Below, piece by piece: positions 14,626 through 61,354 of a DNA stretch of 64,000 bases. Source of the stretch: Candidatus Aenigmatarchaeota archaeon (GTDB taxonomy: Archaea > Aenigmatarchaeota > Aenigmatarchaeia > GW2011-AR5 > JACRAC01). A model generated the notes under the pieces. The model searched no databases. It saw only the letters and a program-made list of their open reading frames with translations, and was not told the DNA's origin. Position 1 is the first letter of the stretch; each line of letters opens with the position of its first letter. Made by a program: the position numbers and the translations under genes. Location of the stretch: contig JACPJV010000033.1 in NCBI GenBank assembly GCA_016187395.1, positions 2,151-66,150 of the forward strand, given 5' to 3'.

Positions 14626-14961
14626 TCATCTTCCATTCTTTATTTTGACTTCGTTGTTTATCGTTTCCAGCATCGACAAAGCATTCCATATCTGCGTCCT
14701 TGAATAAGGCGGCAGATTTATGTCGTTGGCAACCTCGTCGAGAACAGATATAGCGGAATTAACGCGAAATTCCAGCTCAAGCTTTTCATTGGAAAGAAAC
14801 TCCATGGCCTTTACAATAGAGCTCTTTACGTTCTTCGGCACCGACCTGTCGTTGCCAATCTCCTCCAGAACGTTGATTACTAAATTTACTTCCATATGAT
14901 CACCCGTTGCACTTTCAAAATCCATTTGCGTCTGAATCATATCACCCTGCTTGCTTTCCAC
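14626..14961 (-). CDS. UPF0147 family protein
   Basis: GNDRSVPKNVKSS...ANDINLPPYSRTQIWNALSMLE matches the duplicated UPF0147 motif. Confidence 0.8.
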   Translation of the reverse strand: MESKQGDMIQTQMDFESATGDHMEVNLVINVLEEIGNDRSVPKNVKSSIVKAMEFLSNEKLELEFRVNSAISVLDEVANDINLPPYSRTQIWNALSMLETINNEVKIKNGR

Positions 14962-15292
14962 TGCCAGGTTTTATCATATTCTGAAGTTCATCCTGGGATT
15001 CTTTCATCATAGCTTCAAGCCTTTTTTCTTGCTTTTCAAGCCCCTTGATTTTCATGTCTATCTGCATCACGATCTCTTCCAGCTCTTCTTTCAGTTTTTC
15101 TTTCGTGCTTTTTAAGAGAACAGGCCCGACAGACTTGAATATGTCCCCTTTTGCATTAGCCACCTCCTCCAATGCCCTTTCTATTTCAATTTTTTGCATT
15201 GACAAAGACTGCTTCTGCATGACTACATTTTGCAGATGCTGGTTCTGTTCCTGGGCCCTGCCGAGTATTTCCTGAATCTCTTCATTCGCCAT
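14942..15292 (-). CDS. pfdB: prefoldin subunit beta
   Basis: Coiled-coil/beta-hairpin layout (QKQSLSMQKIEIERALEEV...DIFKSVGPVLLKSTKEK...LEKQEKRLE). The start was chosen at MANEEIQ, preceded by gtgaggt. Confidence 0.85.
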   Translation of the reverse strand: MANEEIQEILGRAQEQNQHLQNVVMQKQSLSMQKIEIERALEEVANAKGDIFKSVGPVLLKSTKEKLKEELEEIVMQIDMKIKGLEKQEKRLEAMMKESQDELQNMIKPGSGKQAG

Positions 15293-15469
15293 CGCAATCA
15301 ACCTCACGATTGCTCGCAAGCAATCGTGCATTCACCTTACACCTCTCGTTTCGCCGCGGCGACGGAAGCAAATGACATTTTCTGCAGAAAATGTCCATTC
15401 ACTCGCTGCATTCACTTTCAACCCCACGTTTTCCCGCAGGAAAACGTGCATTCACTTACACACCCGCCG
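15293..15469 (-). repeat. leader-hairpin array L1a (between rpoP and pfdB)
   Basis: Hairpins cacgattgct-cgca-agcaatcgtg (15305-15328), gacattttc-tgca-gaaaatgtc (15374-15395) and cacgttttcc-cgca-ggaaaacgtg (15425-15448) are joined by tgcattcac/cctcac linkers. Confidence 0.75.
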
Positions 15470-34850: not shown

Positions 34851-35139
34851 CAGTCGTGCATAGCTTAATTGTTCTTTATCGAAAATTCCAGGGATTCTGC
34901 AAGCTTGTTGTCAACAGGGCATCCTGCTTCCTGCAGGATGTCGTGCAAAGACCTGCGCTTCGGCATTTTTTTCATGACAAAGTGCAATCGTGACTCATCA
35001 ACGTGGATAGCATGTCTTCTGAGAAACAAGCTCAGCTTGCGTACGTGCATTTACTAGCTTTGTCCTTCTGGGAATAAATTCCCAAAGTTAATAGGAATTT
35101 AACCAAACGGTTAAATACTTATGCCCCTTCTAGAATACT

Positions 35140-36699
35140 ATGGAGACAAAGCTCGCTTCTATCATAGACGTTTTTGATGAAAGCAGCGTCAGAGGGCTTA
35201 TTTTACGCACCCTTGCGCAGGAATGGCCGCTTACTGCGCGGAAGCTTCATTCAAAGATTTCCCAAAAAAAGCAGCTCGGATACCACGCAATATACAAGTC
35301 TATTAACCAGATGGTAAAGGAGGGCATCCTGAAAAAAGAGGAAAACGGGTATTTAGTTAATATAGAATGGCTGGAAAAGGTCGATTCTGTATTCAGCCGG
35401 ATGCGGGGGCAGATAGGAACAAAACCCATGTACATACCAAGGCTTTCTGATATAAAGCAGGAGGGAGAAAACCATTCCTTTGTCTTTGAGAATCTCGCAG
35501 AAGCTGACAGGTACAGGAAAAAATTGCAGTCAGAATATCTGGAATCAAAAGAAAGCAAGAAGCCATACGTAGGCTTAAGTTATCATATGAGGAGCCCTCT
35601 TGTTTATGCAGAAAAATCAGCAAAAACAACAGACGTTGTTTCTAAGCAGAGAATACCGGTCTTCCTTCTGATCGAAGGAAACACGCCCGTTGATGAGTGG
35701 TGCGCAGACTACTATAGATTCCTATCGCTGAAAGTTCGCACAGGAATGAAAGGAACTGTTCATAACTGCGAAATAATGGTAGTAGGAGACCACATAGTTC
35801 AGATGTTTCTTCCAAAAAAGACCAACGAATATATAGATTCCTTGTACGGAAGAATGAGTCATGCATCGGAAATATCAATACCGGAGTTCTATTCAAAGGT
35901 CTTTCTGGAAAAATCAGACGTCAAAATAGTTGTAACCAAGAACAGCGCCCTGGCAGAACAGATAAGGCAGAACGCAATAAGCAAATTCGCAACCGACCGC
36001 GTTGCTGTCTTTAGTGTTCTTGGCACCTTTGTAGATTACTCCCTTTACTATGAGATTGCAAAAAACCTCGATGAAAAGGGTCTTTTAAACACGGATGAGG
36101 GAAAAGAACTTCTGAAGCTTGGGGAAAGCTGGAAGAAGGGAAAAATAAAGCAAGACACGTACCTGGAAAGTTATGTTAGTCATTATGCAAATGCCGTTAA
36201 AGGAAGGAGCACCTCTGATATTGAGGAAGCAATAAAATCCGTTGTAGATGATAACATCACAAATATTCTGTTAAAAAATGCCGCAAAACTCATGAGTTTC
36301 GCCTGTTCTTACACGGATACTGCGGCAATAACCAGGATGCCTCTTGAATTTGTCAAGGGACTGGAGCCTTACGTTATATTCAACCACATTATTGCAACTG
36401 CTTTGGAAGCAAAGAAAGGGGTATATACCGGAAAAATTTTGCATAATTTAATTTCTCAGAAAGCAAAGGAAAAAGCATTCTTGCAATGGTCAAAAAACAG
36501 GAACATGAAAGGGTCTCTGGGTTTTGGAAACAGAAGCAGCGATCTGGGATTTCTAAAGCACGTTGAAATTCCTATACTGGTGAATCCAAGCGGAAGGATG
36601 CAATCCTATGCAAAAAAACATAAGTGGAAATCTTATGGGAAAAAAGAGATTGGATATCTGGTAGAATACGTCAAGGAAGAGCTGCGTAGCGATGCGTGA
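35140..36699 (+). CDS. wHTH + central domain + degenerate HAD-IB-like domain protein (paralog 1)
   Basis: An N-terminal winged helix (ILRTLAQEWPLTARKL...GYHAIYKSINQMVKEGIL). The HAD motif I position reads FSVLGTF (no Asp) and motif III reads GFGNRSSD. Confidence 0.8.
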   Translation: METKLASIIDVFDESSVRGLILRTLAQEWPLTARKLHSKISQKKQLGYHAIYKSINQMVKEGILKKEENGYLVNIEWLEKVDSVFSRMRGQIGTKPMYIPRLSDIKQEGENHSFVFENLAEADRYRKKLQSEYLESKESKKPYVGLSYHMRSPLVYAEKSAKTTDVVSKQRIPVFLLIEGNTPVDEWCADYYRFLSLKVRTGMKGTVHNCEIMVVGDHIVQMFLPKKTNEYIDSLYGRMSHASEISIPEFYSKVFLEKSDVKIVVTKNSALAEQIRQNAISKFATDRVAVFSVLGTFVDYSLYYEIAKNLDEKGLLNTDEGKELLKLGESWKKGKIKQDTYLESYVSHYANAVKGRSTSDIEEAIKSVVDDNITNILLKNAAKLMSFACSYTDTAAITRMPLEFVKGLEPYVIFNHIIATALEAKKGVYTGKILHNLISQKAKEKAFLQWSKNRNMKGSLGFGNRSSDLGFLKHVEIPILVNPSGRMQSYAKKHKWKSYGKKEIGYLVEYVKEELRSDA

Positions 36700-36863
36700 G
36701 TGTATGTACATGAGTGAATGGACGTTTCTCTGCAGAGAAACGTCAGTTTGCCTCCGCTGCAGAGAAATGTGAGGTGTGAATGAATGCAGCGAGTGAATGG
36801 ACATTTTCTGCAGAAAATGTCATTTGCTTCCGTCGCCGCGGCGAAACGAGAGGTGTGTTTACG
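36697..36863 (+). repeat. leader-hairpin array L4 (plus-strand orientation)
   Basis: Contains gacgtttctc-tgca-gagaaacgtc and gacattttc-tgca-gaaaatgtc. 36781-36856 is the perfect reverse complement of 15339-15414. The array ends in gagaggtgtgtttacg directly before the ATG. Confidence 0.8.
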
Positions 36864-38387
36864 ATGGCAGAAGAGAATAGCGTAAAGAATATAGTGCTTT
36901 ATGAGCTTGCAAGAAAGTGGCCTGAAAACGTGCATCAGCTTCATGAAAGAGTACTGGCAAAAAGGCCCGGGATAACGTACCATGCTGTTCATAAGGCTGT
37001 CTCGCAATTAACCAGACACGGTGTTCTCAAAAAGGACAGCAATTCATACTACATATCTCCTGACTGGACAGAAGGAGTGTCAGCACTTCTTGAAAACATA
37101 AAAAACAGCTATATCTATACAAAACCCGCATTCCTCCCGGGATTGAAAGATTTCGTACAGGAGGGAGAAACAAAAGCCTTGATTTTTGACAATCTGGAAA
37201 AAGCAGATGACTATAAAAAGCGTCTCCAGTGGGAGTATCTGATAGCAACAGGAGAAAGAAAACCTTATTGCTCTATGATGCAACACCTGCGTTCTCCGAT
37301 TATAGCCAGTGAAAAGGCGCTTAACATACTGACAATGGCACAGCAGGCAAAGTCAGAGGCATTTGTTTTGGTAGCAGGAAATACTCCATTAGACGGCTGG
37401 TGCGCAGATTACTATAGAAACGAGTTTGTTAAGGTGCAGACTGACATCAAGTGTGCAGAAACATGCGAAACTGCGGTTTTGGGCGACATAGTTATACAGG
37501 TGTATATACCAGATGACCTGCAAAAGGCTCTTGATGCGGTATACAGCCGCTCCCAGCACGTCGCTGACATTAGCATGCCTGAATTCTACAGCATTTACAG
37601 AAGATCTGCCAACATCAAGTTTGCAGTAATGAAAAATGCGGAGATTGCGCAGCAGCTGCGAAACCAGATACTCGAAAACTTTAAGCGCAGCAGGATAGCC
37701 GCCTTTGATATAAACGGAACACTGGTGGAGGGTTTTCTGGTAAAAAGATTTTTGATGTATCTGACAGCGCTCGGAGTTGTGGAAGACAAATATCTGGAAA
37801 AGGCAAACCTGTTGAAGGAAATGGAGTCTGCAGGAAACATTATGCATAAAAAACATATAGAAAAAACAATGGAACTGTATGCCAGGGCACTTAAGGGAAA
37901 GAAGAGGGAAGAAATAGAGATATTGGCAGATAAGTTTATTGCAGAAGGAATGCACAGCCTGTATGAGCTTTTTCCCTTCGCAACAAGATTCTTTTTCCGC
38001 GCCAATTCCTATTTCCGGACATTAGCGATAACAAAAACAACCTCGGAAATAATGAACGCCTTTTTGCATATATTGCCTTTCGACTTTGCGATCACCTCAG
38101 AGTTAGAAGTGAAAAACGGCGTATACACAGGAAGATACACCAGAAATATGGCAGGCTACAATGCCAAGAAAAGAGCCCTCAAACAGTGGCTGGAAAAAAA
38201 CGGGGAGAGAAATATCTACATAGGTTTTGGAAACAGGCCTGAAGATCTGGCATTTTTGGAAAAATCCTCTAGAATAGTCATTGTAAAATCCGAAGAAAGC
38301 GGTTTTTGGGACAAGAAGAAGATGAAAAAGGTAATCCTGATAGACCCAAAGGAATACAGCAAGGACATCCTTGATGCGATAAAGTAA
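36864..38387 (+). CDS. wHTH + central domain + HAD-IB-like domain protein (paralog 2)
   Basis: Same layout as 35140-36699. Motif I is FDINGTL (second Asp replaced by Asn) and motif III is GFGNRPED. Confidence 0.8.
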   Translation: MAEENSVKNIVLYELARKWPENVHQLHERVLAKRPGITYHAVHKAVSQLTRHGVLKKDSNSYYISPDWTEGVSALLENIKNSYIYTKPAFLPGLKDFVQEGETKALIFDNLEKADDYKKRLQWEYLIATGERKPYCSMMQHLRSPIIASEKALNILTMAQQAKSEAFVLVAGNTPLDGWCADYYRNEFVKVQTDIKCAETCETAVLGDIVIQVYIPDDLQKALDAVYSRSQHVADISMPEFYSIYRRSANIKFAVMKNAEIAQQLRNQILENFKRSRIAAFDINGTLVEGFLVKRFLMYLTALGVVEDKYLEKANLLKEMESAGNIMHKKHIEKTMELYARALKGKKREEIEILADKFIAEGMHSLYELFPFATRFFFRANSYFRTLAITKTTSEIMNAFLHILPFDFAITSELEVKNGVYTGRYTRNMAGYNAKKRALKQWLEKNGERNIYIGFGNRPEDLAFLEKSSRIVIVKSEESGFWDKKKMKKVILIDPKEYSKDILDAIK

Positions 38388-60731: not shown

Positions 60732-61003
60732 TGCCCCCGCCGAGAGTTTCGCCAATCCCATTTCATATTACCGGAGCGAAGCTCCGAAAGTTCTTTTGGG
60801 GTTCTCCAAGACCTTTTCTTTCAAGAAAAGGGATTGGATTCGAACTCGGGTTTCAAGGTATCTGCAATTCAAATACCGCAACCTTGTGTCCTATTTGCTT
60901 CCAAGCGAAGTCTTCCGCGCGCAGCTGGTTCGCTGCGGTCGGCGTGTATTATTTCTCCCTTGCTCACGCACGCTGCGCTTGGACCAGGCTAGACTACGAG
61001 GGC
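60732..61003 (-). tRNA. tRNA-Arg (anticodon GCG) with three introns: 60895-60983 (D-loop), 60860-60875 (37/38), 60746-60838 (59/60)
   Basis: Acceptor GCCCTCG/CGGGGGC, U8, A14, G18G19, D-stem GTCT/GGAC, anticodon arm CAAGG-TTGCGG.A-CCTTG, T-arm CCGAG-TTCGAAT-CTCGG, discriminator A. Each intron sits in a helix-bulge-helix-bulge-helix fold. The spliced product is 74 nt. Confidence 0.85.
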
Positions 61004-61301: not shown

Positions 61302-61354
61302 GAAAAGTTCTTTTGGGGTTCACCAAGACCTTTTCTTTCAAGAAAAGGGATTGG
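61302..61354 (+). repeat. copy of the tRNA-Arg T-loop-intron segment, forming the EF-1beta leader
   Basis: gaaaagttcttttggggttcaccaagaccttttctttcaagaaaagggattgg compared with 60786-60837 shows one indel and one substitution. It contains the 9-bp palindrome ccttttctt-tca-agaaaagg. Confidence 0.8.

Follow-up and report, generated by a model that had tools for sequence, protein, structure and literature searches.

A recently copied hairpin leader with a Shine-Dalgarno sequence belongs to a lineage-private repeat family in an Aenigmarchaeota genome

Introduction

The genome of an Aenigmarchaeota archaeon carries the same 76-nt block twice in inverted orientation, once in the spacer between rpoP and pfdB and once directly upstream of a wHTH/HAD gene. 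How did one block come to occupy two operons, and what might it do there? We addressed these questions in a window of 64,000 nt of contig JACPJV010000033.1, together with the rest of the assembly and the genomes of relatives. The best explanation, which we hold with moderate confidence, is that the block is a type-2 leader of a lineage-private mosaic family, that it was recently copied between arrays by linker-mediated recombination or conversion, and that it acts as a leader.

Two perfect copies of a 76-nt block

According to the initial annotation, 36781-36856 (plus strand) matches 15339-15414 exactly when the latter is read as its reverse complement; a count of copies across the full assembly had also been proposed. 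A repeat search recovered the two arms as 76 nt with 100% complementarity, and an exact-string search agreed, finding the block only twice in the 982-kb assembly, once on each strand. A perfect match of this length cannot have a chance origin. As had also been noted, both copies have the same orientation relative to the gene downstream: each is sense, as pfdB, which follows copy A, is encoded on the minus strand and the wHTH/HAD gene, which follows copy B, on the plus strand. The observation that the flanks diverge immediately holds in that identity is lost at once, but the flanks are still related: three of the four sides carry a further family unit or linker next to the block. The two arrays had further been thought to share their ending before the ATG. 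This is true only of the HAD array, which closes with GAGGTGTGT, 5 nt and the ATG, whereas GAGGTTGATTGCG-ATG closes the pfdB array. In the latter, the GAGGTGT of the block lies inside the array, followed by AAGGTGAATG and one further hairpin unit (Table 1).

As the source is a metagenome-assembled genome, one of the copies might be an assembly artefact, in the form of a chimeric join or a segment wrongly inverted at the repeat. We consider this extremely improbable. First, many contig ends overlap exactly over 141 nt, pointing to a de Bruijn assembler run at k=141, for which single k-mers would span the 76-nt repeat. Second, a 76-kb contig encloses both copies, neither of them at an end. Third, nine relatives from the same taxonomic order keep rpl37ae, rpoP and pfdB, the last two of which enclose copy A here, in this succession, and tandem HAD paralogues lie on either side of copy B. 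The assembled arrangement is the ancestral one. An inversion between copies A and B is nonetheless mechanistically sound as a possible exchange, and it would keep both operons co-directional because each copy is sense to its own operon.

The block is a complete type-2 leader

The block is one complete type-2 leader, a class of module 72-76 nt long. It combines a 13-nt stub with a long hairpin, a half-palindrome and the Shine-Dalgarno (SD) sequence GAGGTG. Two more type-2 leaders, at C10:7503 and C17:14850, start with the same stub. The long hairpin, or type-2 head, combines a wobble-rich outer helix (GAGUGAAU/AUUUGCUU) with an inner stem of 9 bp formed by the perfect palindrome GACATTTTC-TGCA-GAAAATGTC at 36800-36821, and the second palindrome plus the SD has 28 nt in common with the uS19 leader at C17:15758. 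Both borders of the block fall inside conserved linkers of the family, TGAATG and GAGGTGT, and at each site, taking out the block together with 3-4 nt re-creates a canonical junction. The empty-site alleles expected upon such removal are ...GTGGGGTTGAAAG/TGAATGCACGATTGC... and ...ATGTGAGGTGT/GTTTACGATG... (the slash marks the junction).

Upstream of copy B, the HAD spacer contains a first type-2 leader with the stub GTGTATGTACATGAG, the palindrome GACGTTTCTC-TGCA-GAGAAACGTC and the SD GAGGTGT. An in-frame ATG at 36780, ahead of the HAD start, opens a spurious 535-aa ORF that runs through the block. Protein look-ups found no exact HAD or PfdB matches on other contigs, the nearest HAD homologue being 50% identical.

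Table 1. Features of the two loci, in coordinates of the window
Feature	Position	Strand	Evidence
Copy B, complete type-2 leader, last unit before the wHTH/HAD gene	36781..36856	+	Repeat and exact-string searches, leader comparison
Copy A, inside the rpoP-pfdB spacer array, with a type-1 hairpin unit on each side	15339..15414	-	Sequence, repeat and exact-string searches
Stub or 'pre-repeat' TGAATGCAGCGAG, truncated 5' part of a type-1 unit	36781..36793	+	Sequence comparison
Type-2 head, long hairpin	36791..36829	+	RNA folds; pair counts, 20 heads; covariance-model (CM R2) hit
Second small palindrome TCGC-CGCG-GCGA + AACGAG, 3' half of a type-1 hairpin allele	36833..36850	+	Sequence comparison
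Shine-Dalgarno GAGGTG, 8 nt upstream of the ATG at 36864	36850..36855	+	16S 3' end; sequence
First type-2 leader of the HAD spacer plus GAA linker, 62% identical to the block	36700..36780	+	Sequence; leader comparison
wHTH/HAD-IB paralogue 2, 507 aa, gene served by copy B	36864..38387	+	ORF and protein analysis
Terminal type-1 unit of the pfdB array, GTGAATG-CACGATTGCT-TGCG-AGCAATCGTG-AGGTTGATTGCG, directly 5' of the pfdB ATG (15292-15290)	15293..15338	-	Sequence, type-1 model
Entire stretch between the rpoP stop codon and the block: GGGTGTGTAA linker, type-1 unit CACGTTTTCC-TGCG-GGAAAACGTG	15415..15469	-	Sequence, type-1 model
pfdB (prefoldin beta, 116 aa), downstream of copy A	14942..15292	-	ORF and protein analysis

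A mosaic family of hairpin modules across the genome

A model of the type-1 unit gave ~27 full-length sense hits in 0.98 Mb, ~21 of them simple type-1 units and the remainder type-2 hairpins; a model of the type-2 head gave 33 hits in the assembly. The heads that lie outside leaders look unbiased in orientation, as judged on a noisy greedy ORF map. All type-1 units bear an SD, are sense to the downstream gene and lie 11-13 nt upstream of its start codon or of the next unit; correspondingly, an ATG-initiated ORF begins 11-13 nt beyond the end of 16 of 16 type-1 arrays. The units begin with GAATG-CAC or GAATG-GAC and follow each other in tandem, head to tail, with a period of 40-43 nt. We rejected a coding reading of the units: they are stop-free and in frame in 9 of 16 cases, but their 40-43 nt spacing in tandem is not a multiple of three. 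A K-turn or box C/D reading of GUGAAUG was likewise dropped, as the motif has no tandem G·A geometry.

The stems are perfect palindromes with conserved flanks, and identical hairpin alleles recur at unlinked loci, with seven occurrences of CACGTTTTCC and three of CACATTTCGC. Covariation in the stems is strict, with 27 double changes and no single ones in the pair counts from 20 heads. The inner stems contain no G·U among 478 base pairs and their loops are mostly palindromic; G·U pairs in the outer helix are present on the sense strand only.

We identified 11 type-2 leaders, uniformly 72-75 nt in length except for two outliers of 59 and 88 nt. Pairs other than A/B are 44-89% identical (median 63%) against 100% for A/B, making A/B the youngest copy in the family and bearing out the earlier proposal of recent copying. 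That proposal had spoken of a multi-hairpin block; what was recently copied is a single standard module from a mosaic family spread across the genome, and its borders lie in the family linkers. The mosaic nature of the family is evident from the separate recurrence of parts of the block, the stub plus GAA at C10 and the 3' 28 nt at C17.

A lineage-private family in derived spacers

The repeat family is private to this Aenigmarchaeota lineage. No member was found among 60 relatives searched with the type-1 model or 38 searched with the type-2 model, and pattern scans of metagenome, GTDB and IMG/VR contigs returned only hairpin-less chance hits of 13-22 bits, as against ~60 bits for true units. 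Against Rfam 15 the window gave no match; the highest-scoring hit below threshold reached 19 bits, where the cutoff was 95. Our literature search retrieved generic surveys of archaeal REPs and nothing on SD-bearing palindromic leaders.

In the relatives, rpl37ae-rpoP-pfdB is kept with a spacer of merely 13-25 nt ('AGGTGAnnnnATG'), and the HAD homologues are free of arrays. Thus, the arrays are derived insertions. The family has colonised spacers between co-transcribed housekeeping genes that were formerly very short.

How the block was copied

The two placements would stem from a recent DNA-level copying event between two family arrays. The most likely routes are short-homology recombination, gene conversion or template switching, with the conserved linkers TGAATG... 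and ...GAGGTGT as the probable junctions. Alternatively, the block might be a non-autonomous MITE- or REP-like mobile element, recently moved by a trans-acting enzyme that recognises the hairpin and inserts it beside the SD and start codon. The recurrence of identical alleles at unlinked loci would agree with this, as would the status of the arrays as lineage-specific insertions, the occurrence of the same hairpin core within rRNA introns, and the strictly perfect palindromic stems with conserved flanks, which are expected of a protein-recognised DNA hairpin. Nevertheless, we regard it as unlikely, given that the units show no element-specific termini, are mosaic and arrayed in head-to-tail tandem rather than as REPIN-type inverted doublets, and, in the case of type-1 units, are all sense to the downstream gene. 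Moreover, searches of the ~80% complete assembly for two transposase families, Y1 (PF01797; RAYT/IS200) and TnpB, gave no hit, with positive PF01797 controls; a mobilising enzyme could sit in the missing ~20% of the genome.

The block borders bear on the same issue. The initial annotation had suggested a search for target-site duplications, and the only border repeats turned out to be family linkers, GAGGTGT at copy B and GTGAATGCA at copy A; transposition into a linker would also give such 7-9 nt direct repeats. No locus-specific target duplications were seen flanking singleton units. Of the three routes originally offered, transposition, gene conversion and recombination, transposition is therefore the least supported: the borders lie in family linkers, deletion yields canonical junctions, and the Y1/TnpB searches were empty, all of which favours recombination or conversion and makes a dedicated transposase less likely. 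Overall, the earlier interpretation is partly supported.

The rRNA genes raise a further alternative, namely that the modules are, or derive from, BHB introns copied through RNA by a splicing-related process or reverse transcription, the block being an intron-like leader insert. An insert in the 16S gene (C29:7847-7953) holds the same hairpin head and is a canonical BHB intron, as defined by two 3-nt bulges, a 4-bp helix between them, flanking helices and splicing that restores the functional sequence. It splices to GGGATTAGAT/ACCCCAGTAGTCC, and its BHB, checked by hand, has one mismatch in the outer helix; a similar element of ~100 nt is present in the 23S gene. However, the BHB of the 16S intron is formed by the intron ends and not by the hairpin head, and a BHB scan around the block and the units of both arrays found nothing convincing, with only weak low-stringency hits. 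The best of these (h=6, h'=5, between two adjacent type-1 units) was rejected, as it competes with perfect hairpins of 10 bp. An intron origin of the modules is thus very improbable, and we retain DNA-level copying between arrays.

A candidate translation-initiation module

The 16S 3' end reads ...GGAUCACCUC (gene end ...GGATCACCTC), and its CACCUC is complementary to GAGGTG. The distance from GAGGTG to the ATG is 8 nt for copy B and 7-8 nt for the type-1 units, which by sequence makes these SD-led initiation regions. The hairpins are expected to fold in the mRNA. At copy B, folding would leave the SD single-stranded 8 nt before the HAD start codon, and the module would constitute a translation-initiation region, while at copy A it would be an internal spacer unit; the module probably also serves as a stabilising or insulating intercistronic hairpin. 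For the SDs of type-2 leaders, the predicted accessibility amounts to only 0.4-0.76. Upstream of the gene that opens the HAD operon, the sequence is AT-rich and lacks an SD, which fits the use of SDs at internal cistrons. The absence of G·U from the inner stems and the palindromic loops point to a constraint or process at the DNA level rather than to simple selection at the RNA level, and for this reason we put forward the RNA role as an inference.

A more specific function would be that selection keeps the copies identical as a cis-regulatory RNA or protein-binding site co-regulating pfdB and the HAD gene. Both copies are indeed sense to, and upstream of, a gene, the type-2 leaders are uniform in architecture, and the outer-helix G·U pairs exist on the sense strand only. 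Yet the nine other type-2 leaders have the same architecture and differ by 11-55%, indicating that identity is not required for function. Further, copy A does not adjoin a start codon, no functional link between pfdB and the HAD gene is evident, Rfam yields no match, and all relatives examined lack the family. We accordingly deem co-regulation improbable and return to recent copying as the source of the identity.

Implications

The duplicate in itself is ordinary repeat biology. It does reveal recent activity of lineage-private, SD-bearing hairpin modules in a reduced (~1.2 Mb) DPANN genome. Streamlining is the usual picture of such genomes. In this one, the operons of highest conservation, those for ribosomal proteins, RNA polymerase subunits, exosome, prefoldin and proteasome, have seen their spacers grow from ~15 to up to ~180 nt, and the expanding modules now supply candidate ribosome-binding sites in them. 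If functional, the modules would be a compact natural example of portable archaeal translation-initiation regions; if selfish, they would be repeats that persist in tight operons by carrying the signals they displace. In addition, identical sense-oriented copies in separate operons are plausible substrates for operon reshuffling.

A bolder synthesis, which we offer as speculation and think doubtful, is that the family comprises portable initiation cassettes (hairpin, SD, spacer and ATG) still being copied between operons of this DPANN archaeon, where they have taken the place of the ancestral 13-25 nt SD junctions of core information-processing operons. The palindromic core would then be a hairpin mobile as DNA, lodged in rRNA BHB introns as well, kept perfectly Watson-Crick at the DNA level and moved by a non-HUH route, and sense copies could swap operon halves with polarity intact.

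Comparison with known systems

Transposition has been proposed for archaeal BHB introns (PMC4090602), and ultrasmall archaea have a broad-specificity endonuclease (PMC3239211). The hairpin head common to the leaders and the 16S intron, and near-identical short inserts at several sites, recall intron transposition, but the leader units do not have BHB geometry and occur in mRNA spacers rather than in tRNA or rRNA. The Correia elements of Neisseria have defined terminal inverted repeats and a TA target duplication, and occur in both orientations. Like such MITEs with expression signals (MITE survey, PMC11602168), the modules are small non-coding hairpin repeats beside genes that may supply expression signals. 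They differ in their strict sense orientation; the direct repeats seen at the block borders are family linkers, and neither a parent IS nor an autonomous transposase partner was found among Y1 and TnpB.

The BOX elements of Streptococcus pneumoniae are modular intergenic repeats of the form boxA-boxB(n)-boxC. They parallel the present family in having few module types in variable number and order and predicted stable RNA hairpins, and can affect the expression of neighbours. Their sequences are unrelated and their host belongs to another domain, and the archaeal modules, whose function is predicted, end in an SD and are anchored to start codons.

Parallels also exist with the proteobacterial REP/BIME repeats, short (~25-40 nt) intergenic palindromes present in many copies and in mosaic clusters with conserved linkers, which lie in transcribed operon spacers, have several stem 'alleles' per genome and are proposed to stabilise mRNA (PMC3333891, PMC3116915, PMC3733652). 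Short multi-copy palindromes, mosaic arrays, conserved linkers, operon spacers and stem alleles are common to both, and the family is comparably repetitive (~27 type-1-model and 33 type-2-head hits in 0.98 Mb). REP/BIME stems are imperfect and bear a GTAG/CGTC tag at the stem end, whereas those described here are perfect and untagged. The cognate Y1 enzyme of REPs (RAYT or IS200-605 TnpA) has no PF01797 counterpart in this ~80% complete assembly, and REPINs are pairs of inverted REPs, in contrast to head-to-tail tandems with a 40-43 nt period. The archaeal (DPANN) units are further set apart by their SD, sense orientation and placement 11-13 nt from a start codon or the next unit. The family thus resembles REP/BIME/BOX-like repeats, as a modest variation on them.

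The repeat block is a module of a genome-wide family

A repeat search of the window showed the arms at 15339-15414 and 36781-36856 to be 100% complementary over 76 nt, and an exact-string search of the assembly (981,745 bp, 42 contigs) found no copy besides these two, which lie on opposite strands. The window occupies C35:2151-66150 of the assembly (contig:position). Both searches bear out the initial annotation, which had described the second arm as the exact reverse complement of the first and had called for a copy count across the full assembly. Each copy lies in sense orientation to its downstream gene, in agreement with the annotation, which had noted that the two have the same orientation relative to the gene they precede. 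Its claim that both arrays terminate in GAGGTGTGT followed by 4-6 nt and ATG holds at site B, the spacer before the second wHTH/HAD paralogue, and fails at site A, the rpoP-pfdB spacer.

Organization of the two arrays (gene-sense) and of the block at copy B (window coordinates)
Feature	Location	Content
Site A, first part	minus strand, rpoP-pfdB	rpoP-TAG, CGGCGGGTGTGTAA, type-1 unit CACGTTTTCC-TGCG-GGAAAACGTG, GGGTTGAAAG, block
Site A, after block	minus strand	AAG, type-1 unit CACGATTGCT-TGCG-AGCAATCGTG, AGGTTGATTGCG, ATG of pfdB
Site B	plus strand, spacer of the two wHTH/HAD paralogues	TGA, type-2 leader no. 1, GAA, block, GTTTACG, ATG of HAD no. 2
Block stub	36781-36793	
Block type-2 head	about 36791-36829	
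Block inner palindrome	36800-36821	
Block half-palindrome	36833-36850	TCGC-CGCG-GCGA
Block Shine-Dalgarno (SD)	36850-36855	GAGGTG
ATG after copy B	36864	

The block as a unique sequence was rejected: it is a complete module of a repeat family that occurs throughout the genome in two main types of unit. The type-1 unit has the form (R)GTGAATG, a 10-bp perfect stem (CAC...GTG) with a 4-nt loop, AGGTG(TGTTnCG) and ATG. Its covariance model (A1/R1), made from 17 copies, gave about 27 full-length sense matches genome-wide, about 21 being simple type-1 units and the remainder type-2 hairpins. The type-2 head is a long hairpin, GYGAAU-G-[GAC...GUC]-A-GUUUGC, with 33 matches in the genome (model R2); its inner stem is a perfect palindrome, and its conserved flanks pair via G·U wobbles. 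Type-2 leaders (n = 11) join a stub (GTGAATGCAC/G...GAG), the head, a linker (TTCCGC TGCA), the 3' half of a type-1 stem and GAGGTG, with a length of 72-75 nt in nine and of 59 and 88 nt in the remaining two. The 76-nt block exactly matches this architecture. In all 16 type-1 arrays the ATG of a real ORF lies 11-13 nt past the array end. Tandem 25-27-nt sub-repeats (TGCA + arm + AGTTTGC + nTCCGC) occur at C6:106413 and C31:67510, where one 5' arm could have a choice of several 3' arms to pair with.

Borders, age and mosaicism of the block

The identity between copies A and B spans TGAATG at the start to GAGGTGT at the end, both of which are universal unit linkers of the family. If the block and GAA are subtracted from site B, what remains is ATGTGAGGTGT|GTTTACGATG, which is how a lone type-2 leader canonically ends (as at C13:18530 and C18:24283). 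Subtracting the block and AAGG from site A gives GGGGTTGAAAG|TGAATGCACG, the canonical type-1/type-1 junction, as seen also in C25 and in the rpl37ae-rpoP spacer. Each site has in the block one module more, set between 7-9 nt direct repeats, the only candidates seen for the target-site duplications sought at its borders. Because these repeats are simply the linkers, an element-specific target duplication is not recognisable and the donor not identifiable. A linker-bracketed extra module of this kind is the expected outcome of short-homology recombination between arrays, or of gene conversion or template switching between them.

In pairwise comparison, the remaining type-2 leaders share 63% identity at the median and 89% at most, against 100% for A and B, which are therefore the youngest copy pair of the family, in keeping with the recent copying proposed initially. 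Pieces of the block are also found separately, indicating that modules are reshuffled: GAA+TGAATGCAGCGAGTG begins the type-2 leader at C10:7503, and the 28-nt TCGCCGCGGCGAAACGAGAGGTGTGTTT, comprising the 3' 21 nt of the block and the next 7 nt at site B, is identical in the uS19 leader of C17. Unlinked loci also share identical hairpin alleles (CACGTTTTCC seven times, CACATTTCGC three times). The genome is repeat-rich, with 375 segments bearing exact repeats of at least 28 nt, many above 76 nt, so that a perfect 76-mer is unexceptional here. The block pair is genuine and represents recent copying, within the genome, of a standard module of the family. As judged from sequence, it is a plausible inversion substrate; an exchange between A and B would leave both operons co-directional.

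Derived origin of the arrays and soundness of the assembly

The rpl37ae-rpoP-pfdB order is kept in nine same-order relatives. Their rpoP-pfdB spacer measures 13-25 nt in seven, including all five of the same family (e.g., AGGTGATTTTATG, AGGTGAATAAATG), and about 300-340 nt in two more distant ones (L024 and L026); in this genome it is 178 nt with four units. No such arrays were found at the HAD homologues of same-family genomes. Model R1 matched none of 60 relatives and R2 none of 38, plus one marginal match in an rRNA contig; in metagenome, GTDB and IMG/VR contigs, exact-pattern scans picked up only chance matches without hairpins. The arrays are derived. Two same-family genomes (L019, L022; G005, G002) have rpl37ae-rpoP spacers of about 100 nt filled with short hairpins and repeats of their own, unrelated to this family, in which 'aatagctatt' recurs; lineage-specific spacer repeats may be common in this archaeal family.

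That one copy stems from a chimera or mis-oriented segment is argued against by the conserved synteny across copy A and by a suggested k-mer length exceeding the 76-nt repeat: many contigs overlap exactly by 141 nt at their ends (e.g., the C21 end with C29:24564-24704, the C11 end with the C29 start), suggesting a k=141 de Bruijn assembly. These overlaps are graph links usable for scaffolding the MAG.

rRNA introns carrying the hairpin

The SSU and LSU rRNA genes, on C29 (L009), are heavily interrupted: the former (L009:446-3417) takes up 2,972 nt against 1,478 positions in the model, with one insert of about 820 nt, and the latter (L009:10398-17770) 7,373 nt against 2,987. Outside the window, a 107-nt 16S insert (C29:7847-7953; L009:1348-1454) lies inside the universal GGATTAGATACCC site. 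It forms a canonical bulge-helix-bulge (BHB), with a 4-bp helix UUAG/CUAA, 3-nt bulges AUA and ACA and then a 12-bp inner helix, and its predicted splice product is GGGATTAGAT|ACCCCAGTAGTCC. Its interior carries the same type-2 head as the mRNA leaders, with the stem GACGTTTTCC-TGCA-GGAAAACGTC, identical to the commonest type-1 stem except at the outermost pair. The 23S gene has a similar element of about 100 nt (C29:20473-20569). The hairpin core lodges in introns too, another place where an insert is harmless. The leaders themselves as introns were rejected, no convincing BHB being found in leader units.

A recurring element of about 100 nt, a type-2 head plus the motif AAAGAAAGGTCTTGGAG, occurs at C31:12610, C25:29205, C37:8110 and C37:20177, and is possibly identical to the element in the rRNA introns. 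The motif part also has two minus-strand copies in the window (60787-60837, 61304-61354).

Predicted role in mRNA

The 16S gene ends in GGATCACCTC, making GAGGTG a 6-nt SD sequence, which at copy B lies 8 nt upstream of the ATG. The region upstream of the first HAD paralogue (35050-35140; ATG at 35140) is AT-rich and TATA-like, without an SD. In archaea, first cistrons are commonly leaderless and internal cistrons SD-led; the region fits this pattern, and its sequence suggests that the first wHTH/HAD paralogue is a leaderless first cistron and the second is SD-led via repeat modules. Family leaders precede S28e, uS19, uL22, RpoH, RpoP, RpoA'', Rrp4, RNase PH, DnaG/Toprim, fibrillarin, prefoldin beta and proteasome beta, genes of conserved information-processing operons. 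The modules would be transcribed as part of operon mRNAs, where their hairpins are predicted to fold and the last unit of an array would provide the ribosome-binding site; by analogy with the proposal for REP/BIME, the hairpins would probably serve between cistrons as structures that stabilise or insulate.

Leader units are stop-free, with often exactly 39 nt from an internal ATG to the gene ATG, and in frame in 9 of 16, so that ORF finders extend genes through them: the HAD ORF (36780-38387) has 535 aa as extended against a real 507, and the pfdB ORF (14942-15331) 129 against 116.

Perfect palindromes and comparison with known repeats

Across 53 hairpins, the inner stems contain no G·U pairs and two mismatches in 478 base pairs, and of 35 4-nt loops, 20 are palindromes too (19 TGCA, one CGCG). 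The inner stem of the type-2 head displays 27 double changes and no single-sided ones; its outer helix is rich in wobble pairs, which exist on the sense strand only. Ordinary RNA-level compensatory evolution would hardly yield stems so diverse in sequence that are all the same perfect Watson-Crick palindromes. Such palindromes suggest either DNA-level recognition or correction, through template switching at quasi-palindromes or an unknown enzyme that binds hairpins, or else that wobble pairs are very strongly selected against. Y1 and TnpB genes were absent from the assembly, which is about 80% complete.

The family has functional and architectural parallels in the REP/BIME and BOX-type mosaic repeats. 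It lacks the GTAG/CGTC tag, a RAYT and REPIN doublets, and hence does not classify as REP. Unlike REP/BIME and BOX, it is start-codon-anchored, SD-bearing, strictly sense-oriented and archaeal.
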